Shown: in pieces, positions 9,010 to 36,183 of the stretch
Numbering within the stretch: position 1 is the stretch's first letter
Layout: the number at the start of each line of letters is the position of its first letter
NCBI RefSeq assembly: GCF_055900595.2
Contig: NZ_CM148325.1
Direction: 5' to 3' (one strand)
Length of the DNA stretch: 64,000 bases
Made by a program: the position numbers and the translations under genes
The notes under the pieces: model-generated
The model's input: the letters and a program-made list of their open reading frames with translations, nothing else
Databases searched by the model: none
Told to the model about the DNA's origin: nothing

Positions 9010-9272
9010 AGCTTTCCTCGCAGAGTTGGCCCATTTCCGCAAACGCCAGAAAAATCAGCGCGACGGCCGCAAAAGGGGAGCGGGAATTGCAGGATGCAAT
9101 CTCTGTAACAAGCGTAGCGGGTTTGCTTACACCCTCCGGTTAAGGAATGTACAATCAAACCAGTTGACGCCTGAATTGGGCAGTTAATGAGCTTTTTACC
9201 CTACCAGTGTTTAAATTTGTGATCAACTTCACACATGATTTTCGTTTAGGAGTCATTGATGTAACTGATTAT

Positions 9273-10151
9273 TTACACCAAATTTACAGAGAAGATTTCC
9301 TCGACCATTGCCCCCGCCAGACGCTGCGCTGAACAGAGTCGTGGCATCCCCAGTGCGACAGTTTGCCAGCGTTGGGTCACTGACCAGCAAACGGGTTGTT
9401 TATCTGCCGTGGACCACTTTCCCAGCCAACTTAAAAAATCAGCATGATCCCCACCCGTCGGGGCGGTTGAAGAGGTAAACCACTGATGGTAATAGTGACG
9501 AGTGGTCGTTGCCGCATTAATACTCTCTGCCAGATGTTGTGTCGCTTTCACGCGCAAATCACCCAGCAACAACGCCACCGCTTGCGGGCTTCCCAGACGG
9601 CAGGCATCGCCAAATGCCCCCCAGCGCAACTCCTCCAGAACGATAAAACAGCGCCCAGGCAACGACCAGGCGTTATACGCCCCAGCACGCCAGCGGGTAA
9701 AAATTTGCTCGCTCTGATCACCTGCCTGCACCAGTAGGCCTCGTTGCGTTAACGCCTTTTCCTTCCAGCGACAACGGGCTGAAAACCACTCATACAAGGC
9801 GGCAATTTGCTGGGGGAGCTCCGGGAAAGCAGAGTGCTGGCGGTGATCCATTTTTTGCAGCAGCGCCAGATGCTGCGCGATCTGCGTCAGCGCCAGATGA
9901 CCGGGATCCAGCATCGACGCCAGTTTTTCCACCAATGTCAGACGCAGGCTAAGCGGCGCATTTAACATCCCGCCGTTCGTCCATGCCTGAAGCTGCACAC
10001 GCGCAAGAAGTTCCTGCATCAGTCGTTCACGAAACTGCTGCTGATGGGCTTGTGGATGGCGGGCATCATCGCCCTGCGCCAGATCCACTAAAAAGCGGGG
10101 ATGAATCGACTCCAGCACACGACCGGGGCCGTCCAGCAACGTCTTGGTCAA
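9273..10151 (-). CDS. yjcZ: Uncharacterized protein YjcZ, downstream partner of crfC
   Basis: 292 aa ORF whose start overlaps the crfC stop by 4 nt (translational coupling); no motif I recognise. Confidence 0.75.
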   Translation of the reverse strand: MTKTLLDGPGRVLESIHPRFLVDLAQGDDARHPQAHQQQFRERLMQELLARVQLQAWTNGGMLNAPLSLRLTLVEKLASMLDPGHLALTQIAQHLALLQKMDHRQHSAFPELPQQIAALYEWFSARCRWKEKALTQRGLLVQAGDQSEQIFTRWRAGAYNAWSLPGRCFIVLEELRWGAFGDACRLGSPQAVALLLGDLRVKATQHLAESINAATTTRHYYHQWFTSSTAPTGGDHADFLSWLGKWSTADKQPVCWSVTQRWQTVALGMPRLCSAQRLAGAMVEEIFSVNLV

Positions 10152-12376: not shown

Positions 12377-12777
12377 AGAAAATTTTTCCTTAAAGCAAAT
12401 TTTATTACTTTTATTTAGCCAGATTGTTTTTGAGTTCTGTTTTCGGCTTTTATAATTACTGCAAGAAATAATTTTATATTTAGAGTGTTGTTTTTTATTA
12501 GAATAAATAACGTCTTCCGATACGTTTAAAACGTCAGAAAGATAAAAATATCATTTGAATTAAAAAAAGAACAAGTAGAGCATTAACCTTATCTTAAATA
12601 ATAAATGGAGGCAAAAAGATTATTTTCTTTTTGCGTTTCCTTTCAAATGAAAACGATCGTCGTCTAAAATCAGCAGTACCCCCGACAAACTCAGGGATTT
12701 TGTGTATAATTGCGGCCTTTTTCGGCAATCTGCCGTTTTTTGGCGCTTTTGCCCTGCTGACTTTTGAGGAAATCCAC

Positions 12778-13113
12778 ATGTCATTACCACACTGCCCAAA
12801 ATGCAACTCCGAATACACCTACGAAGATAACGGCATGTACATCTGCCCGGAATGTGCCTACGAATGGAACGACGCAGAACCTGCACAGGAAAGCGACGAG
12901 CTGATCGTTAAAGATGCTAACGGCAATCTTCTGGCTGATGGCGACAGCGTTACCATCATTAAAGATCTGAAGGTGAAAGGTAGCTCTTCGATGCTGAAGA
13001 TCGGTACCAAAGTGAAAAACATTCGCCTGGTTGAAGGCGACCACAACATCGATTGCAAAATCGACGGTTTTGGTCCGATGAAACTGAAATCTGAGTTTGT
13101 GAAAAAGAACTGA
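12778..13113 (+). CDS. yjdM: Zn-ribbon protein YjdM (historically PhnA)
   Basis: 111 aa from [30 protein letters not shown] (CxxC...CxxC zinc ribbon); the six-frame ORF starts further upstream at 12631. Confidence 0.85.
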
Positions 13114-13144
13114 TTGTATTGCTCAATGTAATATTGGCACATGA

Positions 13145-13290
13145 TCGGTAGGCCGGATAAGGCGCTCGCGCCGCATCCGGCTACGGTGCCGACTGCCTGA
13201 TGCGACGCTCGCGCGTCTTATCAGGCCTACAAATTCTCGCACCATCCGGCAACGGTGCCTAATGCGACGCTTACCGAGTCTTATCAGCCC
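13145..13290. repeat. Cluster of REP (repetitive extragenic palindromic / BIME) units
   Basis: Repeated ggccggataaggcg...cgccgcatccggc and gcctgatgcgacgc...gtcttatcaggcctac motifs in alternating orientation. Confidence 0.8.
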
Positions 13291-13352
13291 CCGCTTATCT
13301 GTATAATTTTCGAACTACACTTAACTGGCTTCTCTTAACTGAGGTCACCATC

Positions 13353-13796
13353 ATGCCGTTAAGTCCCTACCTCTCTTTTGCTGGTAACTGTTCCGATGCG
13401 ATTGCCTATTATCAACGCACGTTGGGCGCGGAACTGCTTTATAAAATCAGCTTCGGCGAAATGCCGAAATCAGCGCAGGACAGCGCCGAGAACTGCCCTT
13501 CCGGTATGCAATTTCCCGATACCGCTATCGCCCATGCTAACGTGCGTATTGCCGGAAGCGATATCATGATGAGCGATGCCATACCGTCAGGAAAAGCCAG
13601 CTACTCCGGTTTTACACTGGTACTCGATTCGCAACAGGTCGAAGAAGGAAAACGCTGGTTTGATAACCTTGCTGCTAACGGAAAAATCGAAATGGCCTGG
13701 CAGGAAACTTTCTGGGCGCATGGCTTCGGCAAAGTCACCGATAAATTTGGCGTACCGTGGATGATTAATGTCGTCAAACAACAACCAACGCACTAA
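13353..13796 (+). CDS. yjdN: YjdN (historically PhnB), glyoxalase/bleomycin-resistance-fold protein
   Basis: 147 aa ORF; position between yjdM and phnC. Confidence 0.8.
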   Translation: MPLSPYLSFAGNCSDAIAYYQRTLGAELLYKISFGEMPKSAQDSAENCPSGMQFPDTAIAHANVRIAGSDIMMSDAIPSGKASYSGFTLVLDSQQVEEGKRWFDNLAANGKIEMAWQETFWAHGFGKVTDKFGVPWMINVVKQQPTH

Positions 13797-13851
13797 CCCG
13801 CCGGGAGGCCCGCCCTCCCGCACTGTCATCGAATTCCCGTTAACTCTTCAT

Positions 13852-13884
13852 CTGTTAGTCACTTTTAGTTAACAAAATCGTCAC
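13852..13884 (+). promoter_or_regulatory. Pho box (PhoB binding site) of the phnC promoter
   Basis: ctgttagtcacttttagttaacaaaatcgtcac resembles tandem PhoB half-sites (CTGTCAT-like) placed ~45-75 bp upstream of the phnC ATG. Confidence 0.55.
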
Positions 13885-13928
13885 GATAATCCGCCACGAT
13901 GGAGCCACTTTTTTAGGGAGGCTGCATC

Positions 13929-14717
13929 ATGCAAACGATTATCCGTGTCGAGAAGCTCGCCAAAACCTTCAATCAGCATCAGGCGCTGCATGCGGTTGAT
14001 CTGAACATTCATCACGGTGAAATGGTGGCTCTGCTTGGGCCGTCCGGTTCCGGCAAATCCACCCTTTTACGTCATTTAAGCGGTTTGATTACCGGCGATA
14101 AATCTGCCGGTAGCCATATCGAGCTGCTGGGCCGCACAGTCCAGCGCGAAGGCCGCCTGGCCCGCGATATCCGCAAAAGCCGCGCCAACACCGGCTACAT
14201 CTTCCAACAATTCAACCTGGTGAATCGCCTGAGCGTACTGGAGAACGTGCTGATTGGCGCGCTCGGCAGCACGCCATTCTGGCGCACCTGTTTTAGCTAC
14301 TTCACCCGCGAGCAGAAACAGCGCGCGTTACAGGCGCTGACCCGCGTTGGCATGGTGCACTTTGCCCATCAGCGCGTTTCCACCCTCTCCGGCGGACAGC
14401 AGCAGCGTGTGGCGATTGCCCGTGCGCTGATGCAGCAGGCGAAGGTGATTCTGGCCGATGAACCGATCGCCTCGCTGGACCCGGAATCGGCCCGCATCGT
14501 GATGGATACCCTGCGCGACATCAACCAGAACGACGGCATCACCGTGGTGGTGACGCTGCATCAGGTGGATTACGCCCTGCGCTACTGCGAACGCATCGTC
14601 GCCCTGCGCCAGGGGCACGTCTTCTACGACGGCAGCAGCCAACAGTTTGATAACGAACGTTTTGACCATCTCTACCGCAGCATTAACCGCGTCGAAGAGA
14701 ACGCGAAAGCTGCCTGA
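13929..14717 (+). CDS. phnC: Phosphonate ABC transporter ATP-binding protein
   Basis: 262 aa; Walker [15 protein letters not shown] signature LSGGQQQRV, Walker B ILADEP. Confidence 0.9.
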
Positions 14718-14741
14718 CATCCCCATCATTGAGGAAAACGA

Positions 14742-15758
14742 ATGAACGCTAAGATAATTGCCTCGCTGGCCTTCACCAGCATGTTCAGCCTCAGCACCCT
14801 GTTAAGCCCGGCGCACGCCGAAGAGCAGGAAAAGGCGCTGAATTTCGGCATTATTTCAACGGAATCACAGCAAAACCTGAAACCGCAATGGACGCCGTTC
14901 TTACAGGATATGGAGAAGAAGCTGGGCGTAAAGGTCAACGCCTTCTTTGCCCCGGACTACGCGGGCATTATCCAGGGGATGCGCTTCAACAAAGTGGACA
15001 TCGCCTGGTACGGCAATCTGTCGGCGATGGAAGCGGTGGATCGCGCCAACGGTCAGGTCTTCGCCCAGACGGTCGCGGCGGATGGATCGCCGGGTTACTG
15101 GAGCGTGTTGATCGTCAACAAAGACAGTCCGATCAACAACCTGAACGATCTGCTGGCAAAGCGTAAAGATCTCACCTTCGGCAATGGCGATCCTAACTCC
15201 ACCTCTGGCTTCCTCGTCCCCGGCTACTACGTCTTCGCCAAAAACAATATCTCCGCCAGCGACTTCAAGCGCACCGTCAACGCCGGGCATGAAACCAACG
15301 CGCTGGCCGTCGCCAACAAGCAGGTGGATGTGGCGACCAACAACACCGAGAACCTCGACAAGCTGAAAACCTCCGCACCGGAGAAGCTCAAAGAACTGAA
15401 GGTGATCTGGAAATCGCCGCTGATCCCAGGCGATCCGATCGTCTGGCGCAAAAATCTTTCCGAAACCACCAAAGACAAGATCTACGACTTCTTTATGAAC
15501 TACGGCAAAACGCCGGAAGAGAAAGCGGTGCTGGAGCGCCTGGGCTGGGCCCCGTTCCGCGCCTCCAGCGACCTGCAACTGGTGCCGATTCGCCAGCTCG
15601 CGCTGTTTAAAGAGATGCAGGGCGTGAAAGGCAATAAAGGGCTGAATGAGCAGGACAAGCTGGCAAAAACCAGCGCCATTCAGGCGCAACTGGATGACCT
15701 GGACCGCCTGAACAACGCGTTAAGCGCGATGAGTTCGGTGAGTAAAGCGGTGCAGTAA
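14742..15758 (+). CDS. phnD: Phosphonate ABC transporter periplasmic binding protein
   Basis: 338 aa with an N-terminal signal peptide; follows phnC. Confidence 0.9.
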   Translation: MNAKIIASLAFTSMFSLSTLLSPAHAEEQEKALNFGIISTESQQNLKPQWTPFLQDMEKKLGVKVNAFFAPDYAGIIQGMRFNKVDIAWYGNLSAMEAVDRANGQVFAQTVAADGSPGYWSVLIVNKDSPINNLNDLLAKRKDLTFGNGDPNSTSGFLVPGYYVFAKNNISASDFKRTVNAGHETNALAVANKQVDVATNNTENLDKLKTSAPEKLKELKVIWKSPLIPGDPIVWRKNLSETTKDKIYDFFMNYGKTPEEKAVLERLGWAPFRASSDLQLVPIRQLALFKEMQGVKGNKGLNEQDKLAKTSAIQAQLDDLDRLNNALSAMSSVSKAVQ

Positions 15759-15768
15759 TGTGCTCGAT

Positions 15769-15861
15769 CGGTCCCCTCTCCCTTGAGGGAGAGGGTTAGG
15801 GTGAGGAAGAAATGCGCACGCTGGTGCCCTCACCCCGGCCCTCTCCCACAGGGAGAGGGAG
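15769..15861. repeat. Pair of GC-rich palindromic units (ccctctccc-loop-gggagaggg plus ttagggtgagg / cctcaccccgg) in inverted orientation
   Basis: Perfect 9-bp stem-loops seen directly; the same unit recurs at 21122-21231. Confidence 0.6.
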
Positions 15862-15883
15862 AAAACATTAAACGGAGCCAAAC

Positions 15884-16663
15884 ATGCAAACCATCACCAT
15901 TGCCCCACCCAAGCGCAGCTGGTTCTCGATCTTCAGCTGGGCCATTGTTCTCGCCGTACTGGTCGTCTCGTGGCAGGGCGCGGAAATGGCCCCGCTCACG
16001 CTGATTAAAGACGGCGGCAACATGGCGACGTTCGCCGCCGACTTCTTCCCGCCCGATTTCAGCCAGTGGCAGGATTACCTCACCGAAATGGCCGTCACGC
16101 TGCAAATCGCCGTCTGGGGCACCGCGCTGGCAGTCGTTCTCTCCATCCCCTTCGGCCTGATGAGCGCCGAAAACCTGGTGCCGTGGTGGGTTTACCAGCC
16201 CGTTCGCCGCCTGATGGACGCCTGCCGCGCCATTAACGAGATGGTCTTCGCCATGCTGTTCGTGGTCGCCGTCGGTCTCGGTCCGTTCGCTGGCGTACTG
16301 GCGCTGTTTATCCACACCACCGGCGTGCTCTCCAAACTGCTTTCCGAAGCGGTAGAAGCAATTGAACCCGGCCCGGTGGAAGGCATTCGCGCCACCGGTG
16401 CCAACAAGCTCGAAGAGATCCTCTATGGCGTGCTGCCGCAGGTGATGCCGCTGCTAATCTCCTACTCCCTCTATCGCTTCGAATCCAACGTCCGCTCGGC
16501 CACCGTTGTTGGCATGGTCGGCGCTGGCGGGATCGGCGTCACGCTGTGGGAAGCGATTCGCGGTTTCCAGTTCCAGCAAACCTGTGCCCTGATGGTGCTG
16601 ATTATCGTCACGGTCAGCCTGCTGGATTTCCTCTCTCAACGGTTGCGTAAGCACTTTATCTGA
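15884..16663 (+). CDS. phnE: Phosphonate ABC transporter permease, apparently intact
   Basis: 259 aa uninterrupted ORF with multiple TM segments. Confidence 0.85.
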
Positions 16664-16683
16664 TAAGCGAGGCATTAATATCT

Positions 16684-17409
16684 ATGCACTTGTCTACACA
16701 TCCGACCAGCTACCCAACACGCTATCAGGAGATAGCCGCAAAACTTGAGCAGGAGCTTCGTCAACACTACCGCTGCGGCGACTATCTTCCCGCCGAGCAG
16801 CAACTGGCAGCGCGCTTTGAGGTGAATCGCCACACCCTGCGCCGTGCCATCGACCAACTGGTGGAAAAAGGCTGGGTACAGCGCCGTCAGGGCGTCGGCG
16901 TGCTGGTGCTGATGCGCCCGTTCGATTACCCGCTCAACGCCCAGGCGCGTTTTAGCCAGAACCTGCTGGATCAGGGTAGCCATCCCACCAGCGAAAAACT
17001 GCTGTCCGTGCTGCGCCCGGCCTCCGGTCACGTCGCTGACGCGCTGGGGATAACCGAGGGCGAGAACGTTATCCACCTGCGCACCCTGCGCCGGGTCAAC
17101 GGCGTCGCACTCTGTTTAATCGACCACTACTTTGCGGACCTCACTCTCTGGCCGACGCTGCAACGCTTCGACAGCGGCTCGCTGCACGATTTTTTGCACG
17201 AGCAAACGGGGATTGCGCTGCGCCGCAGCCAGACGCGGATCAGCGCCCGCCGCGCCCAGGCCAAAGAGTGCCAGCGTCTTGAAATCCCGAATATGTCGCC
17301 GCTGCTGTGCGTGCGCACCCTTAACCACCGTGACGGTGAAAGCAGCCCGGCGGAGTACTCCGTCAGCCTGACGCGCGCCGACATGATTGAATTCACTATG
17401 GAGCACTGA
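16684..17409 (+). CDS. phnF: GntR-family transcriptional regulator of the phn operon
   Basis: 241 aa; N-terminal GntR HTH followed by a UTRA-like domain. Confidence 0.85.
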   Translation: MHLSTHPTSYPTRYQEIAAKLEQELRQHYRCGDYLPAEQQLAARFEVNRHTLRRAIDQLVEKGWVQRRQGVGVLVLMRPFDYPLNAQARFSQNLLDQGSHPTSEKLLSVLRPASGHVADALGITEGENVIHLRTLRRVNGVALCLIDHYFADLTLWPTLQRFDSGSLHDFLHEQTGIALRRSQTRISARRAQAKECQRLEIPNMSPLLCVRTLNHRDGESSPAEYSVSLTRADMIEFTMEH

Positions 17410-17862
17410 ATGCACGCAGATACCGCGACCCGCCAGCACTGGATGTCCGTGCTGGCGCACAGCCAACCGGCTGAACTGGCTAACCGCCTTAAAGCGCTAA
17501 ACATCACCGCCGACTATGACATTATCCGCGCCGCCGAAACCGGCCTGGTACAGATTCAGGCGCGGATGGGTGGCACCGGCGAACGCTTTTTTGCCGGCGA
17601 CGCCACGCTCACCCGCGCCGCCATACGCCTGACTGACGGCACGCTCGGCTACAGCTGGGTGCTGGGGCGCGACAAACAGCACGCCGAACGCTGCGCGCTG
17701 ATTGACGCGCTGATGCAGCAATCTCGCCACTTTCAAAACTTATCAGAAACCCTTATTGCCCCGCTGGACGCTGACCGTATGGCACGCATTGCCGCACGCC
17801 AGGCCGAAGTGAACGCCAGTCGGGTCGACTTCTTTACGATGGTTCGCGGAGACAACGCATGA
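17410..17862 (+). CDS. phnG: C-P lyase core complex subunit PhnG
   Basis: 150 aa; start abuts the phnF stop; operon position. Confidence 0.85.
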
Positions 17863-18443
17863 CCCTGGAAACCGCTTTTATGCTTCCCGTGCAGGATGCC
17901 CAGCACAGTTTTCGTCGCCTGTTAAAGGCCATGAGCGAGCCGGGCGTGATTGTCGCCCTACATCAACTCAAACGCGGCTGGCAGCCGCTGAATATTGCCT
18001 CTACCAGCGTATTGCTGACGCTGGCTGATAACGACACGCCGGTGTGGCTTTCCGCGCCATTAAGTAACGATATCGTCAGCCAGAGCCTGCGTTTTCATAC
18101 CAACGCCCCGCTGGTCAATCAGCCGGAACAGGCGACCTTCGCAGTGACGGATGAGGCGATTGCCAGCGAGCAGCTCAACGCCCTTTCCACCGGCACCGCC
18201 GTTGCGCCGGAAGCCGGTGCGACGTTGATTTTACAGGTCACCAGCCTGAGCGGCGGACGCATGCTGCGCCTCACCGGCGCGGGTATTGCCGAAGAACGGA
18301 TGATCGCCCCGCAACTGCCGGAGTGCATTCTGCACGAACTCACCGAGCGCCCGCACCCGTTCCCGCTCGGCATCGACCTGATCCTGACCTGCGGCGAGCG
18401 CCTGCTGGCTATTCCGCGAACCACTCATGTGGAGGTGTGCTGA
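17859..18443 (+). CDS. phnH: C-P lyase core complex subunit PhnH
   Basis: 194 aa; 4-nt overlap with phnG. Confidence 0.85.
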
Positions 18444-19507
18444 TGTACGTTGCCGTGAAAGGGGGCGAGAAGGCGATCGACGCCGCCCACGCCCTGCAAG
18501 AGAGCCGACGCCGGGGCGATACCGATTTGCCTGAACTGAGCGTCGCCCAGATTGAACAGCAGCTTAATCTCGCGGTGGATCGCGTGATGACCGAAGGCGG
18601 CATTGCCGACCGCGAACTGGCCGCACTGGCGCTGAAACAGGCCAGTGGCGATAACGTTGAAGCAATTTTCCTGCTGCGCGCCTACCGCACGACGCTGGCA
18701 AAACTGGCGGTGAGCGAACCGCTCGACACCACCGAGATGCGTCTCGAACGCCGTATCTCCGCCGTTTATAAAGACATTCCTGGCGGCCAGTTGCTTGGCC
18801 CGACCTACGACTACACCCATCGCCTGCTCGATTTCACCCTGCTGGCGAATGGCGAAGCGCCGACGCTGACCACCGCCGACAGCGAGCAAGCCCCATCACC
18901 GCACGTTTTCAGCCTGCTGGCGCGTCAGGGGCTGGCGAAGTTTGAAGAGGATAGCGGCACACAGCCGGATGACATCACCCGCACGCCGCCGGTTTACCCC
19001 TGCTCACGCTCCTCCCGCCTGCAGCAGCTCATGCGCGGAGACGAAGGCTATTTGCTGGCGCTGGCCTACTCCACCCAGCGTGGTTACGGACGCAATCACC
19101 CGTTCGCAGGCGAAATCCGCAGTGGCTATATCGACGTGTCTATTGTGCCGGAAGAGCTGGGATTTGCGGTGAACATCGGCGAACTGCTGATGACCGAGTG
19201 TGAAATGGTCAACGGTTTTATCGACCCGCCGGATGAGCCGCCGCACTTCACGCGCGGCTACGGGCTGGTGTTCGGCATGAGCGAGCGCAAAGCGATGGCA
19301 ATGGCGCTGGTTGACCGTGCGTTGCAGGCTCCGGAGTACGGCGAGCACGCGACAGGCCCGGCGCAGGATGAAGAGTTCGTGCTGGCGCATGCCGACAACG
19401 TCGAAGCCGCAGGCTTTGTCTCGCACCTCAAACTCCCGCACTACGTCGATTTCCAGGCCGAGCTGGAGCTACTCAAACGTCTGCAACAGGAGCAGAACCA
19501 TGGCTAA
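18443..19507 (+). CDS. phnI: C-P lyase core complex subunit PhnI
   Basis: 354 aa from [17 protein letters not shown]; ATG overlaps the phnH stop (the six-frame ORF start at 18323 is an upstream extension). Confidence 0.85.
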   Translation: MYVAVKGGEKAIDAAHALQESRRRGDTDLPELSVAQIEQQLNLAVDRVMTEGGIADRELAALALKQASGDNVEAIFLLRAYRTTLAKLAVSEPLDTTEMRLERRISAVYKDIPGGQLLGPTYDYTHRLLDFTLLANGEAPTLTTADSEQAPSPHVFSLLARQGLAKFEEDSGTQPDDITRTPPVYPCSRSSRLQQLMRGDEGYLLALAYSTQRGYGRNHPFAGEIRSGYIDVSIVPEELGFAVNIGELLMTECEMVNGFIDPPDEPPHFTRGYGLVFGMSERKAMAMALVDRALQAPEYGEHATGPAQDEEFVLAHADNVEAAGFVSHLKLPHYVDFQAELELLKRLQQEQNHG

Positions 19508-20345
19508 TCTGAGCGGCTACAACTTTGCCTACCTCGACGAGCAGACCAAACGCATGATCCGCCGCGCCATCTTAAAAGCGGTGGCGATCCCCGGCTATCA
19601 GGTGCCGTTTGGCGGGCGCGAGATGCCGATGCCATACGGCTGGGGAACCGGCGGCATACAGCTTACCGCCAGCGTGATTGGCGAAAGCGACGTGTTGAAG
19701 GTGATTGACCAGGGCGCGGATGACACCACCAACGCCGTATCAATTCGCAACTTTTTCAAGCGCGTGACCGGGGTAAACACCACTGAACGTACGGACGATG
19801 CGACGCTTATCCAGACGCGCCACCGCATCCCCGAAACGCCGCTGACCGAAGATCAGATCATTATCTTCCAGGTGCCGATCCCGGAACCGCTGCGCTTTAT
19901 CGAGCCGCGCGAAACGGAGACCCGCACCATGCACGCGCTGGAGGAGTACGGCGTGATGCAGGTGAAACTATATGAAGATATCGCCCGCTTCGGTCATATC
20001 GCCACCACTTATGCCTATCCGGTGAAGGTGAACGGGCGCTACGTCATGGACCCATCGCCGATCCCGAAATTCGATAACCCGAAAATGGACATGATGCCCG
20101 CCCTGCAACTGTTTGGCGCGGGGCGCGAGAAGCGTATTTATGCGGTGCCGCCGTTTACCCGCGTGGAAAGCCTCGATTTTGACGATCACCCGTTCACCGT
20201 TCAGCAGTGGGATGAACCCTGCGCGATTTGCGGATCAACCCACAGCTATCTCGATGAAGTGGTGCTGGATGACGCCGGAAACCGCATGTTTGTCTGCTCC
20301 GATACCGATTATTGCCGCCAACAGAGCGAGGCGAAAAGCCAATGA
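19500..20345 (+). CDS. phnJ: C-P lyase catalytic subunit PhnJ
   Basis: 281 aa from MANLSGYNFAYLDEQTKRMIRR; C-terminal Cys cluster (CAICGSTHSYLDE...CSDTDYC); overlaps phnI. Confidence 0.85.
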   Translation: MANLSGYNFAYLDEQTKRMIRRAILKAVAIPGYQVPFGGREMPMPYGWGTGGIQLTASVIGESDVLKVIDQGADDTTNAVSIRNFFKRVTGVNTTERTDDATLIQTRHRIPETPLTEDQIIIFQVPIPEPLRFIEPRETETRTMHALEEYGVMQVKLYEDIARFGHIATTYAYPVKVNGRYVMDPSPIPKFDNPKMDMMPALQLFGAGREKRIYAVPPFTRVESLDFDDHPFTVQQWDEPCAICGSTHSYLDEVVLDDAGNRMFVCSDTDYCRQQSEAKSQ

Positions 20346-21100
20346 ATCAACCGTTACTTTCGGTCAATAACCTGACCCACCTTTACGCGCCGGGCAAAGG
20401 CTTCAGCGATGTCTCTTTTGATTTATGGCCGGGGGAAGTGCTGGGCATTGTCGGGGAATCCGGTTCCGGGAAGACCACGCTGCTGAAATCAATCTCCGCC
20501 CGTCTGACGCCGCAACAGGGGGAGATTCACTATGAAAACCGTTCCCTCTATGGCATGAGCGAGGCCGACCGCCGTCGCCTGCTGCGCACCGAATGGGGCG
20601 TGGTGCATCAGCATCCGCTCGACGGCCTGCGCCGCCAGGTCTCGGCAGGCGGCAATATCGGCGAACGGCTGATGGCGACCGGGGCGCGTCATTACGGCGA
20701 CATTCGCGCCACCGCGCAGAAGTGGCTGGAAGAGGTGGAGATTCCCGCCAACCGTATCGACGACCTGCCGACCACTTTTTCCGGCGGTATGCAGCAGCGT
20801 TTGCAGATTGCCCGCAACCTGGTGACGCATCCGAAGCTGGTGTTTATGGATGAACCGACCGGCGGGCTGGATGTATCGGTACAGGCGCGCCTGCTCGACC
20901 TGCTGCGCGGCCTGGTGGTGGAACTGAACCTGGCGGTGGTGATTGTCACCCATGATTTAGGCGTCGCCCGCCTGCTGGCGGACCGTTTGCTGGTGATGAA
21001 GCAGGGGCAGGTGGTGGAGAGTGGGTTAACCGACCGCGTGCTCGACGACCCGCATCACCCGTATACCCAGTTGCTGGTGTCATCGGTTTTGCAGAATTGA
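20342..21100 (+). CDS. phnK: C-P lyase accessory ATPase PhnK (ABC-type NBD)
   Basis: 252 aa from MNQPLLSVNNLTHLY; Walker A GESGSGKTTLL. Confidence 0.85.
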   Translation: MNQPLLSVNNLTHLYAPGKGFSDVSFDLWPGEVLGIVGESGSGKTTLLKSISARLTPQQGEIHYENRSLYGMSEADRRRLLRTEWGVVHQHPLDGLRRQVSAGGNIGERLMATGARHYGDIRATAQKWLEEVEIPANRIDDLPTTFSGGMQQRLQIARNLVTHPKLVFMDEPTGGLDVSVQARLLDLLRGLVVELNLAVVIVTHDLGVARLLADRLLVMKQGQVVESGLTDRVLDDPHHPYTQLLVSSVLQN

Positions 21101-21121
21101 ATGCAACACCGTGCGCGCTGA

Positions 21122-21231
21122 TCCCCTCACCCCGGCCCTCTCCCGGAGGGAGAGGGAGAAAACCGGCGCAATATTCAACACCGCGCACAATCGGTCCCCT
21201 CGCCCCTTCGGGGAGAGGGTTAGGGTGAGGG
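21122..21231. repeat. Two GC-rich palindromic units of the same family as 15769-15861, flanked by caacaccg(t)gcgc motifs
   Basis: cccctcaccccggccctctcccggagggagaggg and cggtcccctcgccccttcggggagagggttagggtgagggg seen directly. Confidence 0.6.
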
Positions 21232-21276
21232 GCAATGCGCGCACCGCTCCCCAATATGCGAACCACGAGGCGAAAA

Positions 21277-21957
21277 ATGATTAACGTACAAAACGTCAGT
21301 AAAACCTTCATCCTGCACCAGCAAAACGGCGTGCGCCTGCCCGTCTTACAACGCGCCTCGCTCACCGTCAACGCGGGCGAATGCGTGGTGCTCCACGGTC
21401 ACTCCGGCAGCGGCAAATCGACCCTGCTACGTTCGCTGTACGCCAACTATCTGCCCGACGAAGGGCAAATCCAGATTAAACACGGTGACGAATGGATAGA
21501 CCTGGTCACCGCCCCAGCGCGCAAAGTGGTGGAAATCCGCAAAACCACTGTCGGCTGGGTAAGTCAGTTTCTGCGCGTCATCCCGCGTATTTCGGCACTG
21601 GAAGTGGTGATGCAGCCGCTGCTCGATACCGGCGTTCCGCGTGAAGCCTGCGCCGCTAAAGCCGCCCGATTACTGACGCGCCTGAACGTGCCTGAACGCC
21701 TGTGGCACCTGGCACCATCGACCTTCTCCGGCGGCGAACAGCAGCGCGTCAACATCGCCCGTGGCTTTATCGTCGACTATCCGATTCTGCTGCTGGATGA
21801 ACCCACCGCCTCGCTGGACGCCAAAAACAGCGCCGCCGTAGTGGAACTGATCTGCGAAGCCAAAGCCCGCGGCGCGGCCATCGTCGGTATCTTCCATGAC
21901 GAAGCCGTACGCAATGACGTCGCCGACCGCCTGCACCCAATGGGAGTCTCTTCATGA
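21277..21957 (+). CDS. phnL: C-P lyase accessory ATPase PhnL (ABC-type NBD)
   Basis: 226 aa from [11 protein letters not shown]; Walker [12 protein letters not shown]. Confidence 0.85.
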
Positions 21958-23090
21958 TTATCAATAACGTCAAACTGGTGCTGGAAAATGAAGTGGTGCA
22001 CGGTTCACTGGAAGTACAGGATGGCGAAATTCGCGCCTTTGCCGAAAGCCAGAGCCGCCTGCCAGAGGCGATGGACGGCGAAGGCGGCTGGCTGCTGCCG
22101 GGGCTGATTGAGCTGCATACCGACAACCTCGATAAATTCTTCACTCCGCGCCCAAAAGTGGACTGGCCTGCCCACTCGGCGATGAGCAGCCACGACGCGC
22201 TGATGGTGGCGAGCGGCATCACCACCGTACTGGATGCCGTGGCGATTGGCGACGTGCGCGACGGCGGCGATCGGCTGGAGAATCTGGAGAAGATGATCAA
22301 CGCCATCGAAGAGACGCAGAAACGCGGCGTCAACCGCGCCGAGCACCGTCTGCACCTGCGCTGTGAACTGCCACATCACACCACGCTGCCGCTGTTTGAA
22401 AAACTGGTGCAGCGCGAGCCGGTAACGCTGGTGTCGCTAATGGACCACTCGCCGGGCCAGCGCCAGTTCGCCAATCGCGAGAAGTATCGCGAATATTATC
22501 AGGGCAAATACTCGCTCACCGATGCGCAGATGCAGCTGTACGAAGAGGAACAGCTGGCGCTTGCCGCACGCTGGTCGCAGCCGAATCGCGAAACCATCGC
22601 CGCAATGTGCCGCGCGCGACAAATTGCCCTCGCCAGCCACGATGACGCCACGCACGCGCACGTTGCCGAATCCCACCAGCTTGGCAGCGTAATCGCCGAA
22701 TTTCCCACCACGTTCGAAGCGGCGGAAGCTTCGCGCAAGCATGGCATGAATGTATTGATGGGCGCGCCGAATATTGTGCGCGGCGGTTCGCACTCCGGCA
22801 ACGTGGCGGCCAGTGAACTGGCACAGCTTGGTCTGCTGGATATCCTCTCTTCCGACTACTACCCCGCCAGCCTGCTCGATGCGGCATTTCGCGTCGCCGA
22901 TGACGAGAGCAACCGCTTTACGCTGCCGCAGGCGGTGAAGCTGGTGACTAAAAATCCGGCGCAGGCGCTGAATCTTCAGGATCGCGGGGTGATTGGCGAG
23001 GGCAAACGCGCCGACCTGGTGCTGGCGCATCGCAAGGGTAATCACATTCATATCGACCACGTCTGGCGTCAGGGGAAAAGGGTGTTTTGA
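21954..23090 (+). CDS. phnM: RPnTP diphosphohydrolase PhnM (amidohydrolase superfamily)
   Basis: 378 aa; 4-nt overlap with phnL and phnN; operon position. Confidence 0.85.
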
Positions 23091-23647
23091 TGATGGGAAA
23101 ACTGGTTTGGTTGATGGGGCCGTCCGGCTCCGGGAAAGATAGCCTGCTGGCGGAGCTCCGCCTGCGGGAACAAGCTCAGTTACTGGTGGCGCATCGCTAC
23201 ATCACGCGCGATGCCAGCGCCGGAAGCGAAAATCATATCGCCCTGAGTGAGCAGGAGTTTTTTGCCCGCGCGGGGCAGCAACTCTTCGCATTAAGCTGGC
23301 ATGCTAATAGCTACTATTACGGTGCCGGGCTGGAAATTGACCTCTGGCTGCACGCCGGATTCGACGTGGTGGTCAACGGTTCACGCGCCCATCTGCCGCA
23401 GGCGCGGGCGCGCTATCAATCGGCGCTGCTGCCCATCTGTTTACAGGTTTCGCCAGAGATCCTGCGCCAGCGCCTGGAAAACCGTGGACGGGAAAACGCG
23501 ACAGAAATTAACGCCCGACTCGCACGCGCCGCCCGCTATACTCCTCAGGATTGCCATACGCTCAACAATGACGGCAGCCTGCGCCAGTCGGTCGACACGC
23601 TGCTGACGCTGATCCATCAGAAGGAGAAACACCATGCCTGCTTGTGA
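23090..23647 (+). CDS. phnN: Ribose 1,5-bisphosphate phosphokinase PhnN
   Basis: 185 aa; P-loop [11 protein letters not shown]. Confidence 0.85.
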
Positions 23648-24068
23648 GCTTCGCCCGGCCACGCAGTACGATACCGACGCGGTTTACGCGCTGATTTGCG
23701 AGCTAAAACAGGCGGAGTTTGACCACCACGCGTTTCGCGTGGGGTTTAACGCCAATCTGCGCGACCCGAACATGCGCTACCATCTGGCGCTGCTGGATGG
23801 CGAAGTTGTCGGCATGATCGGCCTGCATTTGCAGTTTCATCTGCATCATGTCAACTGGATCGGCGAAATTCAGGAACTGGTGGTGATGCCGCAGGCACGT
23901 GGTTTGAACGTGGGTAGCAAATTGCTGGCATGGGCGGAAAAAGAAGCTCGCCAGGCCGGGGCCGAAATGACCGAGCTTTCCACCAACGTCAAGCGCCACG
24001 ACGCGCACCGTTTCTATCTGCGCGAAGGCTACGAGCAGAGCCACTTCCGCTTCACCAAGGCGCTGTAA
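23634..24068 (+). CDS. phnO: Aminoalkylphosphonate N-acetyltransferase PhnO (GNAT)
   Basis: 144 aa GNAT-like protein overlapping the phnN 3' end. Confidence 0.85.
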
Positions 24069-24069
24069 C

Positions 24070-24828
24070 ATGAGCCTGACCCTCACACTTACTGGCACTG
24101 GCGGCGCACAGGGTGTTCCCGCATGGGGCTGTGAGTGCGCGGCCTGCGCCAGAGCGCGGCGCTCACCGCAGTATCGCCGCCAGCCATGCAGCGGCGTCGT
24201 GAAGTTTAACGACGCGATCACCCTGATCGACGCCGGGCTGCACGGTCTCGCCGATCGCTGGTCGCCCGGATCGTTCCAGCAGTTTTTGCTGACACACTAC
24301 CATATGGATCACGTGCAGGGGCTGTTTCCGCTGCGCTGGGGCGTGGGCGATTCGATCCCGGTCTACGGCCCGCCGGATGAACAGGGCTGCGACGATCTGT
24401 TTAAACATCCGGGCCTGCTTGATTTCAGCCACACGGTGGAGCCATTTGTGATGTTTGATTTGCAGGGATTACAGGTCACGCCGCTGCCGCTCAACCATTC
24501 GAAACTCACTTTCGGCTATCTACTGGAAACGGCACATAGCCGGGTGGCGTGGCTGTCTGACACCGCAGGCCTGCCGGAAAAAACGGTGAAATTTTTACGC
24601 AATAATCAGCCGCAGGTGATGGTGATTGATTGCAGTCACCCACCGCGCGCGAATTCGCCACGCAATCACTGTGATTTAAACACCGTGCTGGCGCTGAATG
24701 AAGTTATCCGCTCGCCGCGCGTGGTTCTGACACATATCAGCCATCAGCTTGATGTGTGGCTGATGGAGAACGTACTGCCGTCAGGGTTTGAGGCGGGGTT
24801 TGATGGGATGGAGATTGGGGTGGAGTGA
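24070..24828 (+). CDS. phnP: Phosphoribosyl 1,2-cyclic phosphate phosphodiesterase PhnP (metallo-beta-lactamase fold)
   Basis: 252 aa; HxHxDH motif (THYHMDH). Confidence 0.85.
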
Positions 24829-24862
24829 TGGGTGAGGGGCGATGCCTGCTCTAAACTCAACA

Positions 24863-25192
24863 TCACCGCCCATACTCATCTTCCATTCTCCGCTCTTCAT
24901 CTTCTAGCTGCCGACGCTCCTGATCCAGCTGGCGCTGGCGATCGTCCAGCTGCCTGCGGCGATCTTCAAACTGGCGGCGGCGATCGTCATATTGTCTGCG
25001 CCGATCGTCGTTCACTTCACGCTGCCAGCCGTCGTCGCGCGAATCTTCATAGTCTCGCCCACGGTCAGGGTTATAAGCATCGTTAATCGCCTGCTGAATA
25101 TTACCAATGGTGTCGTCGATAATATCGGCCTGGGCCGGAACGGTGGACAGCGTGAGCAGGGTGAATAAAAGAAATAGCGGAAAACGTTTCAT
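24863..25192 (-). CDS. yjdP: Small secreted protein YjdP (signal peptide, charged Arg/Asp/Glu/Gln-rich repeats)
   Basis: 109 aa; N-terminal MKRFPLFLLFTLLTLSTVPAQA signal peptide, then low-complexity RRRQ/DDR repeats. Confidence 0.75.
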   Translation of the reverse strand: MKRFPLFLLFTLLTLSTVPAQADIIDDTIGNIQQAINDAYNPDRGRDYEDSRDDGWQREVNDDRRRQYDDRRRQFEDRRRQLDDRQRQLDQERRQLEDEERRMEDEYGR

Positions 25193-25260
25193 TAGCCAAC
25201 CTCAAAAAGAAACTCTATCCACATTAGTCATTACTCATCCATGCAAGTAGTGGATGAATC

Positions 25261-25578
25261 TCAATTTTTCCGCTGCTCTATTGCCGTAATCGCCTCCACA
25301 CGTTGTTGATGACGACCGCCTTCGTACTGCGCGCCCAGCCACGCATCCACAATCATTTTTGCCAGTTCGAGGCCAACCACTCGTGAACCAAAAGCCAGTG
25401 CAACTTCACTGGCGTAATGCGGATAATCAGTGCGCTCTGACGACCTGGTTTCTTTATCAATCCCCTCACTCATTGACCATGAATAAAAGGCTGGCACAGC
25501 AACGCAGAATCCTGCGGTGCCAGCGACATGACCGCCCATTGCTCCGGTACGTTTTTTAATAAGAAACACCGGTTGCAT
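25261..25578 (-). pseudogene. rpiB: Remnant of ribose-5-phosphate isomerase B gene (internally deleted, 5' part scrambled)
   Basis: C-terminal ~60 aa of the ORF (SSERTDYPHYASEVALAFGSRVVGLELAKMIVDAWLGAQYEGGRHQQRVEAITAIEQRKN) matches RpiB as I recall it, but the central ~50 residues, including the GTGVG...AANK active-site region, are missing and the N-terminus does not match. Confidence 0.55.
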
Positions 25579-25830
25579 TGATTAATTGTGCTCAGTATTT
25601 GCCGAAGTACAATATATATAATAAATATATAAAACACCTCATATTATTTACAGAGATAATAAATTCGCATACTTTTCCCTCTTCAGCACAAATGCCTAAT
25701 AAAATGGCTCGTTCCGCTCACACTTCCACTTATTAAAATCGCAATTTCCCAATTATGATAACGCCAGCTTTAAATGACGTATTTTGCATGGATTACATAT
25801 TTACGACACAAATGATAAATGGAGATTTAT

Positions 25831-27816
25831 ATGAATAACTCTCGGTTATTCCGTTTGAGCAGGATTGTTATTGCGTTAACTGCCGCCAGCGGCATGATGG
25901 TAAATACCGCTCACGCAACAGATGAAGCGAAAGCCGCCACTCAATATACCCAACAGGTTAATCAGAATTACGCCAAATCATTACCGTTTAGCGATCGTCA
26001 GGATTTTGACGATGCCCAGCGCGGATTTATCGCCCCGCTGCTGGATGAAGGTATTCTGCGCGATGCGAATGGCAAAGTTTACTACCGCGCGGATGATTAC
26101 AAATTTGATATTAATGCCGCTGCGCCGGAAACCGTAAACCCCAGCCTGTGGCGTCAGTCGCAGATCAACGGCATTTCTGGCCTGTTCAAAGTCACCGATA
26201 AAATGTATCAGGTGCGCGGCCAGGATATCTCTAACATTACATTCGTTGAGGGCGAGAAAGGCATTATTGTTATCGACCCACTGGTGACACCGCCTGCCGC
26301 AAAAGCCGCACTTGACCTTTACTTCCAGCATCGTCCGCAAAAACCGATTGTTGCTGTTATTTACACCCACAGCCACGCCGACCATTATGGCGGTGTGAAA
26401 GGCATTATCTCTGAAGCGGATGTTAAATCTGGCAAAGTGCAGGTGATCGCTCCGGCAGGCTTTATGGACGAAGCCATCAGCGAAAACGTGCTGGCGGGTA
26501 ACATCATGAGCCGCCGTGCGCTCTACTCTTACGGTCTGTTACTGCCGCACAACGCGCAAGGCAACGTGGGCAACGGCCTGGGCGTGACGCTGGCAACGGG
26601 CGATCCGAGCATTATTGCGCCAACCAAAACGATTGTCAGAACTGGCGAGAAGATGGTTATCGACGGTCTGGAGTTTGACTTTCTGATGACTCCGGGTAGC
26701 GAAGCGCCAGCCGAAATGCACTTCTATATTCCGGCCCTGAAAGCCCTGTGTACCGCCGAAAACGCCACGCATACCCTGCACAACTTCTACACCCTGCGCG
26801 GCGCGAAAACCCGCGATACCAGCAAGTGGACAGCGTATCTGAACGAAACGCTGGATATGTGGGGTAACGACGCGGAAGTACTGTTTATGCCGCACACCTG
26901 GCCGGTCTGGGGCAATAAGCATATCAATGATTATATTGGTAAATATCGCGATACTATCAAATACATTCACGACCAGCCCCTGCACCTGGCGAACCAGGGT
27001 TACACCATGAATGAAATCGGCGACATGATTAAGCTGCCACCTGCGCTTGCCAATAACTGGGCCAGCCGCGGCTATTACGGTTCTGTTAGCCACAACGCCC
27101 GTGCAGTGTATAACTTCTATCTCGGCTATTATGACGGCAATCCAGCTAACCTACATCCGTACGGTCAGGTGGAGATGGGCAAACGTTACGTGAAAGCGCT
27201 GGGCGGTTCCGCCCGTGTCATCAACCTGGCGCAAGAAGCGAACAAGCAAGGGGATTACCGCTGGTCAGCAGAGTTGCTGAAACAATTGATTGCCGCCAAT
27301 CCGGGTGACCAGGTGGCGAAGAATCTGCAAGCAAATAACTTTGAACAGTTGGGTTATCAGGCCGAGTCCGCCACCTGGCGCGGTTTCTACCTGACCGGCG
27401 CAAAAGAGCTGCGCGAAGGGGTGCATAAGTTCAGCCACGGCACCACCGGTTCTCCGGACACCCTTCGCGGGATGTCGGTCGAAATGCTGTTCGACTTTAT
27501 GGCCGTTCGCCTCGATAGCGCGAAAGCCGCAGGTAAGAATATCAGCCTGAACTTCAATATGAGCAACGGCGATAACCTCAACCTGACGCTGAACGATAGC
27601 GTGCTTAACTACCGTAAAACGCTGCAACCTGAAGCCAACGCCTCTTTCTACATCAGCCGTGAAGATCTTCACGCCGTGCTGACCGGACAAGCCAAAATAG
27701 CGGATCTGGTAAAAGTGAAGAAAGCCAAAATTATTGGCAATGGCGCGAAACTGGAAGAAATTATTGCCTGTCTGGATAATTTCGATTTGTGGGTGAATAT
27801 CGTAACCCCAAATTAA
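25831..27816 (+). CDS. yjcS: Putative alkyl/aryl sulfatase YjcS (metallo-beta-lactamase fold, secreted)
   Basis: 661 aa from MNNSRLFRL; signal peptide; HSHADH motif. Confidence 0.8.
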
Positions 27817-27824
27817 TGCCACTC

Positions 27825-27866
27825 ACTTTTGGGGGCGCTTAAGCCCCCAAAAGTATTTATTTTAAA
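27825..27866 (+). terminator. Rho-independent terminator after yjcS
   Basis: Hairpin cttttgggggcgcttaagcccccaaaag followed by a T-rich run. Confidence 0.6.
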
Positions 27867-28024
27867 AATACATACAACCAATTAATACATAAAATATATA
27901 AGTTATGAATGCGGTGGCTGAATAAAGCTATTTTTATTCATCGAGAAAATAGCCATACTGACGCCTTCAATGGATATTGATATTCACTACAGATATTGTT
28001 CGCAGCAGACAGGATGTATTTAAT

Positions 28025-28300
28025 ATGCCAACAGTTCTCTCTCGCATGGCGATGCAACTCAAAAAAACAGCCTGGATAATTCCCGTCTTCATGGTTTCGG
28101 GATGCTCATTATCTCCGGCAATCCCGGTGATCGGCGCTTATTATCCCAGCTGGTTTTTCTGCGCCATTGCCAGCCTTATTTTGACGCTCATCACGAGGCG
28201 AATTATTCAGCGGGCAAATATCAATCTGGCATTTGTCGGAATTATTTATACCGCCCTTTTTGCTCTCTACGCCATGCTGTTCTGGCTGGCATTTTTCTAA
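28025..28300 (+). CDS. ytcA: Small lipoprotein/membrane protein YtcA
   Basis: 91 aa from MPTVLSRMAMQLKK with a lipobox-like MVSGCSLS; sits immediately upstream of mdtN. Confidence 0.7.
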   Translation: MPTVLSRMAMQLKKTAWIIPVFMVSGCSLSPAIPVIGAYYPSWFFCAIASLILTLITRRIIQRANINLAFVGIIYTALFALYAMLFWLAFF

Positions 28301-28318
28301 TCTATTTGAGACGCGCTC

Positions 28319-29350
28319 ATGGAAAGTACGCCGAAAAAAGCTCCTCGCAGTAAATTCCCTGCTCTGTTAGTGGTTGCGTTGGCGCTGGTTGCCCTTGTTT
28401 TCGTTATCTGGCGCGTAGACAGTGCGCCATCAACTAATGACGCCTACGCGTCAGCAGATACCATTGATGTGGTGCCGGAAGTCAGCGGTCGCATTGTAGA
28501 ACTGGCGGTCACCGACAACCAGGCGGTGAAACAGGGCGATTTGCTGTTCCGCATCGACCCGCGCCCGTACGAAGCCAATCTGGCGAAAGCCGAAGCCTCC
28601 CTCGCGGCGCTGGATAAGCAAATTATGCTCACCCAGCGTAGCGTTGACGCACAACAGTTTGGTGCCGACTCGGTTAATGCCACGGTAGAAAAAGCCCGTG
28701 CCGCCGCGAAACAGGCCAGCGATACATTACGCCGCACCGAGCCATTACTGAAAGAAGGTTTTGTCTCAGCGGAAGACGTTGACCGCGCAAGAACCGCACA
28801 GCGTGCGGCAGAAGCAGATCTTAATGCCGTATTGTTACAGGCGCAGTCAGCCGCCAGCGCTGTCAGCGGCGTTGATGCACTCGTTGCCCAACGTGCAGCT
28901 GTTGAAGCGGATATCGCCCTGACCAAGTTGCATCTGGAAATGGCAACCGTTCGCGCGCCGTTTGATGGCCGAGTCATTTCCCTCAAAACTTCGGTTGGGC
29001 AATTTGCTTCTGCCATGCGCCCTATTTTCACCCTAATCGACACCCGTCACTGGTACGTGATCGCCAACTTCCGCGAAACCGATCTGAAAAATATTCGCTC
29101 GGGTACACCCGCAACGATTCGCCTGATGAGCGACAGCGGCAAAACCTTCGCAGGTAAAGTGGATTCGATTGGCTACGGCGTGCTACCGGATGACGGCGGC
29201 CTGGTGCTGGGCGGCCTGCCGAAAGTGTCTCGTTCTATTAACTGGGTCCGCGTTGCCCAGCGTTTTCCGGTCAAAATCATGGTTGAAAAACCTGACCCGG
29301 AAATGTTCCGCATCGGCGCTTCGGCAGTCGCTAATCTTGAGCCGCAATAA
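28319..29350 (+). CDS. mdtN: Efflux pump membrane fusion protein (HlyD family)
   Basis: 343 aa; N-terminal TM anchor, coiled-coil and beta-barrel regions typical of MFPs. Confidence 0.85.
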   Translation: MESTPKKAPRSKFPALLVVALALVALVFVIWRVDSAPSTNDAYASADTIDVVPEVSGRIVELAVTDNQAVKQGDLLFRIDPRPYEANLAKAEASLAALDKQIMLTQRSVDAQQFGADSVNATVEKARAAAKQASDTLRRTEPLLKEGFVSAEDVDRARTAQRAAEADLNAVLLQAQSAASAVSGVDALVAQRAAVEADIALTKLHLEMATVRAPFDGRVISLKTSVGQFASAMRPIFTLIDTRHWYVIANFRETDLKNIRSGTPATIRLMSDSGKTFAGKVDSIGYGVLPDDGGLVLGGLPKVSRSINWVRVAQRFPVKIMVEKPDPEMFRIGASAVANLEPQ

Positions 29351-32864: not shown

Positions 32865-32993
32865 AATGTCAGCCGCGTGATGGCTGTCACGCGGTATTTC
32901 GTTTCGTCACGTCAAAACTGACGACAGCCTGTTTTTCGTCAGAGTTTTGAACAAATAGTGCCCGTAATATCAGGGAATGACCCCAAATAAAAT

Positions 32994-33010
32994 GTGGCAT
33001 AAAAGATGCA
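32994..33010 (+). promoter_or_regulatory. Sigma-54 (-24/-12) promoter of fdhF
   Basis: tggcataaaagatgca fits the TGGCAC-N5-TTGCA spacing (GG and GC 10 bp apart), ~55 bp upstream of the fdhF ATG. Confidence 0.5.
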
Positions 33011-33061
33011 TACTGTAGTCGAGAGCGCGTATGCGTGATTTGATTAACTGGAGCGAGACCG

Positions 33062-35209: not shown

Positions 35210-35223
35210 TACAGTCCTTTCTA

Positions 35224-35250
35224 CAGCCTCCTGTTGGAGGCTGTTTTTTT
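35224..35250 (+). terminator. Rho-independent terminator after fdhF
   Basis: cagcctcctgttggaggctg followed by a T7 run. Confidence 0.7.
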
Positions 35251-35302
35251 ATCCATTCGAACTCTTTATACTGGTCACTCCCTACCCAATCGTATTATCA
35301 AA

Positions 35303-35992: not shown

Positions 35993-35994
35993 TG

Positions 35995-36165
35995 TAGGCC
36001 TGATAAGACGCGGCAAGCGTCGCATCAGGCATTGATGTCGGATGCGGCGTAAACGCCTTATCCGACCTACAAAATCACGCTAAATCAGGCTATTGCGCAG
36101 TCTGGCGTAGGCCTGATAAGACGCGGTAAGCGTCGCATCAGGCATCCACACATTGCCGGGTGTAT
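35995..36165. repeat. Cluster of REP/BIME units
   Basis: Three copies of gtaggcctgataagacgcg...cgtcgcatcaggc / ggatgcggcgtaaacgccttatccgacctac in alternating orientation. Confidence 0.85.
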
Positions 36166-36183
36166 GTCCCCGGCAATCCTCAA

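Follow-up and report, generated by a model that had tools for sequence, protein, structure and literature searches.

Overlapping stop and start codons from phnG to phnN in the Escherichia coli C-P lyase operon, and how far they argue for translational coupling

Carbon-phosphorus lyase (C-P lyase) has been solved as Phn(GHIJ)2, Phn(GHIJ)2K, Phn(GHIJK)2, and Phn(GHIJKL)2 complexes, and the PhnK-bound core complex was purified from a plasmid encoding PhnGHIJK (PMC9947105). In E. coli, subunits of heteromeric complexes are overrepresented 4.5-fold among gene pairs spaced by -8 to +10 nucleotides (nt; negative values are overlaps), and the phn pairs are already listed among the candidates for termination-reinitiation, with a flag as predicted complex subunits in Tables S4 and S5 (PMC10666635). 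When native E. coli pairs with a spacing of -4 were studied with stop-codon variants and mRNA controls, four of five were strictly coupled, and the internal Shine-Dalgarno (SD) motif usually mattered (PMC6728339). Here, we analyzed the phn genes carried by a 64,000-nt stretch of E. coli DNA, hereafter the window (contig NZ_CM148325.1 of RefSeq assembly GCF_055900595.2). It holds a complete phnCDEFGHIJKLMNOP operon at 13929-24828, on the plus strand like all genes and junctions described below unless stated otherwise. A first reading of the letters, hereafter the sequence-only reading, had described overlapping junctions from phnG to phnN (17410-23647) as consistent with stoichiometric co-translation of the PhnGHIJK core complex. 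Our analysis favors the view that most of these junctions are truly coupled, in the main by termination-reinitiation, and we give this reading a probability of roughly 0.7.

From phnG to phnN, six of the seven junctions overlap, with spacings, read directly from the sequence, of -4, -1, -8, -4, +176, -4, and -1. Three of them are 4-nt ATGA overlaps, namely, phnG/phnH (17859-17862), phnJ/phnK (20342-20345), and phnL/phnM (21954-21957), and their SD motifs are GGAG, 7 nt upstream, GAGG, and GGGAG, with predicted anti-SD duplexes of -6.6, -8.2, and -6.8 kcal/mol, respectively. The phnH/phnI junction is a TGATG with a 1-nt overlap (18441-18445; SD GGAGGTG, -10.6 kcal/mol), and phnI/phnJ is an 8-nt overlap, ATGGCTAA (19500-19507; SD AGGAG, -6.6 kcal/mol). 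At phnM/phnN, TTGATGATG (23087-23095), the phnM stop codon TGA lies at 23088-23090, and with the annotated phnN start it forms a TGATG (-1) at 23088-23092. Three candidate phnN starts exist there: TTG 23087 (-4, not conserved), ATG 23090 (-1, annotated), and ATG 23093 (+2), the latter being the counterpart of the phnN start annotated in Citrobacter. The sequence-only reading had taken this junction as a TTGA at 23087-23090. We rejected TTG 23087 as the phnN start: K-12 has CTG at this place, and the conserved start is ATG 23090 or, possibly, ATG 23093. More generally, ATGA/GTGA-type overlaps had been announced, and all six coordinates quoted for them do hold a stop/start overlap, but GTGA occurs at none of them.

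Tight junctions extend past this range in both directions. Upstream, phnF and phnG abut in TGAATG (17407-17412, spacing 0), a junction that is the same in K-12 and in strain N96. Downstream, phnN and phnO share 14 nt (23634-23647; SD AAGGAG, -8.8 kcal/mol), and phnO is separated from phnP by a single nucleotide in TAACATG (24066-24072, +1). Within phnG-phnN, the sole uncoupled junction is the 176-nt phnK-phnL spacer (21101-21276), as the sequence-only reading had implied; a second one, the 125-nt phnD-phnE spacer (15759-15883), lies further upstream. With -8 to +10 taken as the range for termination-reinitiation, six of the seven phnG-phnN junctions, and 8/13 operon-wide, fall within it. Those outside are K-L (+176), D-E (+125), C-D (+24), and E-F (+20), as well as N-O, which at -14 is just outside.

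Every overlapped downstream gene is preceded, at a distance of 7-10 nt from its start, by an SD motif that belongs to the 3'-terminal part of the upstream gene. The predicted anti-SD duplex reached -6.5 to -10.6 kcal/mol within 22 nt upstream of the start at each of the six junctions; 9.9% of random operon positions reached -6 kcal/mol, and the joint P for six junctions was ~1e-6. We also computed the energy needed to open the ribosome binding sites (RBS), over segments from -17 to +7, from local unpaired probabilities. The predicted values were 2.9-10.5 kcal/mol, as compared with 9.5 +/- 3.3 for the operon background, which corresponds to the 2nd-64th percentile: 2.9 for phnN, 5.1 for phnM, 8.7 for phnH, and 10.5 for phnI. 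No RBS sequestered in a stable structure was seen among these predictions, no junction being over the 64th percentile. The RBS of phnL, which follows the long spacer, was predicted to be unusually open, at 3.3 kcal/mol or the 3rd percentile.

We then compared the junctions with those of other genomes. K-12 and two further E. coli strains share the stop/start geometry of the overlaps. Over the whole phn operon, the window differs from K-12 by a mean of 5.45% of nucleotides. In the nine tight junctions, taken from -25 to +9 (352 nt in total), there were only 5 mismatches to K-12, versus 19.3 +/- 6.0 in random operon segments of this kind (P = 0.002), such that junctions diverge ~4 times less than gene bodies. 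Identity was complete at G-H (38/38), H-I (37/37), I-J (42/42), and N-O (48/48). Some extra constraint is expected at such sites because two reading frames and an SD motif are superposed there.

Spacing was conserved at far greater distances. We sampled 12 distant phn operons, each carried by an annotated plasmid or chromid, from alpha-, beta-, and gamma-proteobacteria, Bacillota, Actinomycetota, Thermus, and a haloarchaeon; they came from Sinorhizobium, Mesorhizobium, Martelella, Paracoccus, Ruegeria, Variovorax, Citrobacter, a divergent Proteus plasmid type, Mesobacillus, Arthrobacter, Thermus, and the haloarchaeon Natronorubrum. There, 40 of the 47 G-H, H-I, I-J, and J-K junctions were annotated at -8 to +10, and in three of the seven exceptions an alternative in-frame GTG restores an overlap (-11, -8, and -4). 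Annotated exceptions include Citrobacter phnJ (+46, locus 5992-6049), Martelella phnK (+52, 6830-6890), and Mesorhizobium phnH (+56, 4226-4286). The GTG-start peptides of the first two resemble the N-termini of E. coli PhnJ and PhnK, and the PGAP starts of all three are probably miscalls. Incidentally, phnK on Mesorhizobium pMLa appeared to be frameshifted. The statistical survey of Huber et al. 2023 over 1,695 genomes (PMC10666635, Table S4) gives the same picture on a larger scale: median spacings, with first and third quartiles, were -1 (-4, +1; n=233) for G-H, -1 (-1, +2; n=230) for H-I, -4 (-7.2, -3.7; n=204) for I-J, -4 (-4, -3.2; n=218) for J-K, +9 (+3, +24; n=206) for K-L, -4 (-4, +7; n=133) for L-M, and -1 (-4, +2; n=109) for M-N.

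Phosphate starvation gives rise to a single long phn transcript (PMC3734233). Upstream of phnC, we noticed by eye a pho-box-like sequence, CTGTTAGTCAC TTTTAGTTAAC, at 13852-13873, with a GATAAT 11 nt downstream of it (13885-13890). A strict pho-box consensus scan (at most 3 mismatches) gave no internal site but also missed the phnC site, and was uninformative. A consensus scan for sigma-70-like promoters, which is weak evidence, returned zero matches inside 17410-23647. An Rfam search over 13200-25300 returned no element, and no conserved hairpin was found at the junctions. The strongest terminator-like match of the consensus scan, at 18200-18224 inside the phnH coding sequence, has an 11-bp stem with 8 G-C pairs followed by TTGATTTT, and is a consensus match only.

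Taken together, these observations are consistent with the following scenario. The genes phnG to phnN would be translated from one Pho-induced polycistronic mRNA on which the cistrons abut or overlap in two blocks, namely, (F)G-H-I-J-K and L-M-N-O(-P), divided by the repeat-filled phnK-phnL spacer. At each overlap, the terminating ribosome would sit 1-14 nt from the next start, just downstream of an SD motif embedded in the upstream gene, and the same ribosome would most likely re-initiate there. The output of each cistron would thereby be tied to that of the preceding one. For G, H, I, J, and K, the benefit might be a contribution to the supply of near-equimolar subunits of Phn(GHIJ)2K(1-2), while for L-M-N-O it would more likely reside in coordinated expression and in keeping ribosomes on the mRNA against polarity. 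Both the actual occurrence of coupling here and subunit stoichiometry as the selective reason for it are inferred.

Several points weigh against this scenario. The literature that we searched, from which the classic phn papers were absent, yielded no direct test of coupling in phn. The fifth of the native -4 pairs mentioned above, bioBF, initiated de novo (PMC6728339). RNA-seq under non-inducing conditions revealed low-level sub-operon transcripts, including phnGHIJK (PMC3734233). Since the predicted RBS opening energies are not high and the sites are not predicted to be occluded, a free 30S subunit could, in principle, initiate at the internal SD motifs. The overlap density of phn is that of the neighboring nrf, mdt, and eptA-basRS operons. 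Overlaps are also seen at L-M, M-N, and N-O, and yet PhnM, PhnN, and PhnO stand outside the complex; to our knowledge, none of the three occurs in any purified or solved C-P lyase complex. Lastly, PhnL, a stoichiometric member of Phn(GHIJKL)2, is uncoupled from PhnK in Enterobacteriaceae, in the window by the 176-nt spacer.

These last two points bear on the stoichiometry argument itself. Overlap tracks complex membership uncleanly because M, N, and O are overlapped while PhnL is spaced off. Stoichiometric co-translation of PhnGHIJK, as put forward by the sequence-only reading, is thus a reasonable proposal but fits the complex only in part: it finds support in the equimolar GHIJK complex and in the conserved tight spacing of its genes, but it leaves the overlaps joining M, N, and O, and the uncoupled PhnL, out of account.

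We also asked whether the density of overlaps was unusual. Against all unidirectional E. coli pairs (820 at -8 to +10 and 1,630 at >+20, counts from PMC10666635), the probability of at least six tight junctions out of seven was ~0.007. Against the window itself, for which the annotation of a colinear strain was used throughout, a different picture emerged: 11/32 non-phn same-strand pairs were tight overall, and when only pairs <50 nt apart were considered, 8/11 were tight in phn as compared with 11/14 elsewhere (Fisher p = 1.0). The tight non-phn pairs include nrf, mdtNOP, eptA-basRS, and yjcH-actP. We therefore rejected the notion of an exceptional overlap density: on these proportions, the phn operon is long rather than unusually dense, and overlapping junctions are the normal state in E. 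coli operons.

The foremost alternative is that the overlaps merely accompany the compaction of operons and the easy mutational origin of ATGA and TGATG, each cistron being initiated de novo by a free 30S subunit at its own SD motif, with ratios set by RBS strengths. An SD motif for every downstream gene, a predicted RBS accessibility that is average to high, for instance at phnM and phnN, the uncoupled bioBF overlap, and the fact that overlaps equally join non-interacting enzymes and are as dense in other operons would all fit such a view. It accounts less well for the strict coupling of the four other -4 pairs tested, for the ~4-fold lower divergence of the junctions relative to gene bodies, and for a G-H to J-K spacing held across phyla within narrow quartiles, most narrowly at J-K, when K-L is looser. 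On balance, we regard independent initiation as unlikely.

Coupling by RNA unfolding, in which the helicase activity of upstream ribosomes would open a structured downstream RBS, as in atpHA, with no re-initiation by the same ribosome, is one of the two accepted coupling models (PMC12548453), and some occlusion is conceivable for phnH and phnI, whose RBS have ordinary coding-level structure, but we rejected it as the main mechanism and hold it to be very improbable: the local unpaired-probability analysis gave no sign of an occluded RBS, no junction RBS was predicted to exceed typical operon sequence in structure, the majority being more open, the junctions have no conserved hairpin or Rfam element, and the model needs no stop/start overlap, yet the overlap itself is conserved.

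We also looked at what fills the two long spacers. The phnD-phnE and phnK-phnL spacers share repeats: in each, CCCTCTCCC-N-GGGAGAGGG-N-GGGTGAGG units form an inverted pair, and they correspond to types A and B of the intrastrand-triplex motif BoxC/PIT/TMECO described in K-12 (PMC4666352, Table 1). In phnD-phnE, the units lie at ~15772-15806 (plus strand) and ~15828-15861 (minus strand), and in phnK-phnL at ~21125-21158 (minus strand, type B) and ~21195-21230 (plus strand, type A). The REP consensus type (GCCGGATGCGGCG...CCTTATCCGGCCTAC) was not found in either spacer of the window, whereas K-12 and Citrobacter have classical REP in the same two spacers. The K-L spacer is 110 nt long with REP in K-12 and 176 nt long with BoxC/TMECO here, and D-E differs likewise. 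The palindromic units that had been assigned to two junctions by the sequence-only reading are present inasmuch as both spacers hold inverted repeats, but these are of the BoxC/TMECO family, and the REP or palindromic-unit label suits K-12 instead. A full-length K-L spacer of the BoxC type was present in 545 (~10%), and the REP type in 4,840 (~89%), of 5,426 complete E. coli genomes. Classical REP-like sequences (…GTCTTATCAGGCCTAC…) were also noticed by eye at 13200-13290, upstream of yjdN.

Outside Enterobacteriaceae, the K-L junction was tight in 7/10 sampled operons. Because K-L is usually tight there, with a survey median of +9, the enterobacterial spacer looks like a secondary insertion, and the repeats so inserted would explain why K-L is far looser in the window than in the cross-species survey. 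Depending on the lineage, one or the other of two unrelated repeat families fills the same position between cistrons, and the overlapped junctions are invariant. A more speculative idea, which we consider rather doubtful, is that phnD-phnE and phnK-phnL are the sole insertion-tolerant sites, with repeat families replacing one another among E. coli lineages; the spacer allele would then uncouple the synthesis of PhnL from PhnK, and of PhnE from PhnD, and would fix its level independently. If this were true, the dual ABC ATPase of C-P lyase would have a lineage-specific K:L ratio, when most other bacteria keep K-L tight.

The gene assignments on which the junctions depend are as follows. Gene ends were taken from the PGAP annotation, as given for three E. 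coli strains, and from the curated record for K-12. The order from phnG to phnN is canonical and colinear with the K-12 reference operon. PhnG, H, K, L, M, N, O, and P have NCBIfam matches, all far over the curated cut-offs, PhnI and PhnJ have Pfam matches far over theirs (PF05861 and PF06007), and the family-model alignments begin at residues 1-7 in every protein from PhnG to PhnP. The core subunit gene phnG (17410-17862, 150 amino acids [aa]) matches TIGR03293 with 177.8 bits for a cut-off of 89, and its ends are those of PGAP and K-12. It is followed by phnH (17859-18443, 194 aa; TIGR03292, 203.7 bits, cut-off 91.5) and by phnI (18443-19507, 354 aa), residues 1-350 of which align with positions 1-347/348 of the PF05861 model. 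The radical SAM C-P lyase is encoded by phnJ (19500-20345, 281 aa), the ABC-type ATPase bound to PhnJ by phnK (20342-21100, 252 aa; TIGR02323, 411 bits), and a second ABC-type ATPase by phnL (21277-21957, 226 aa; TIGR02324, 368 bits), which has its own SD motif. Next come phnM (21954-23090, 378 aa; NF011981, 808 bits), for the RPnTP diphosphatase, and phnN (23090-23647, 185 aa; NF007485, 348 bits), for the ribose 1,5-bisphosphokinase. From position 1 onward, PDB chains of 4XB6 and 7Z15-7Z19 match every residue of PhnI, PhnJ, and PhnK, that is, 1-354 to 1-354 for PhnI (4XB6_C and 7Z15_C), 1-281 to 1-281 for PhnJ (4XB6_D), and 1-252 for PhnK (7Z15_I). Longer open reading frames in the mechanical listing (for example, GTG 18323 for phnI and TTG 19311 for phnJ) are not the genes, since annotation, family models, and PDB chains agree on the shorter starts. 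We noticed that phnE is intact here (15884-16663, 259 aa), and the K-12 record has a pseudogene, phnE1; according to the literature, the K-12 defect is an 8-bp duplication that makes K-12 phosphonate-negative.

The window matches several E. coli strains at 100% identity over 30000-50000. The stretch 17410-23647 is widespread, with 5,378 of the 5,426 complete E. coli genomes aligning to it over at least 80% of its length; only 48/5,418 records reached at least 95% identity over phnG-N. As compared with the closest strain, E600003, there was a single mismatch in 28001-34000 and almost no difference beyond 28000, whereas 9000-28000 was a mosaic of 1-11% divergence per 500 nt, with a peak of 56 mismatches/500 nt at 23001-23500 in phnN. 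The 9000-28000 region looks like imported or recombined segments. Downstream of yjdP, the window has only a 105-aa RpiB-family open reading frame (25261-25578, minus strand), then directly yjcS (25819-27816), whereas the genes that come after yjdP in K-12 are a full-length rpiB of 450 nt, then alsR and alsB. The als region appears to be missing in the window and in strains N96 and E600003. Insertion sequences were seen in other strains: N96 has an IS621 (IS110-like) between yjdM and yjdN (locus 731-1711), absent from the window, and E200086 has an IS1 inside the phnG-N stretch.

The overlap pattern is already known, being shared by K-12 and the other E. coli strains that we examined, and the pairs are tabulated (PMC10666635); the sequence-only reading was right to call it established biology. 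The value of the present case is mainly one of confirmation, as a clean textbook example of a long operon arranged in two probably coupled blocks with deeply conserved subunit spacing. It also exposes a limit of the stoichiometry argument, with non-subunit enzymes overlapped and one subunit not. The exchange between REP and BoxC at the two uncoupled junctions is the only mildly new point.

The nearest described counterpart of this locus is the phn operon of K-12 MG1655 (b4092-b4106), with the same gene order and an identical stop/start geometry at every overlapped junction; the spacings shared are F-G 0, G-H -4, H-I -1, I-J -8, J-K -4, L-M -4, M-N -1, N-O -14, and O-P +1. K-12 differs by a per-gene nucleotide identity of 92-97%, by its phnE pseudogene, and by the CTG that replaces TTG 23087. 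Among other systems, the termination-reinitiation pairs hyfHI, astDB, and ydbH/ynbE, as well as menDH, of Huber et al. 2019 have a 4-nt ATGA overlap and an internal SD motif, as do G-H, J-K, and L-M. They differ in that they were experimentally tested, whereas the phn junctions, which also use overlaps of -1, -8, and -14, are known from sequence. The atpHA and trpBA pairs and the ribosomal-protein operons are likewise polycistronic, with close cistrons encoding subunits of one complex (PMC6728339, PMC12548453). In those systems, an inhibitory RNA structure or direct genetic proof of coupling was demonstrated, while no comparable structure is predicted at the phn junctions.

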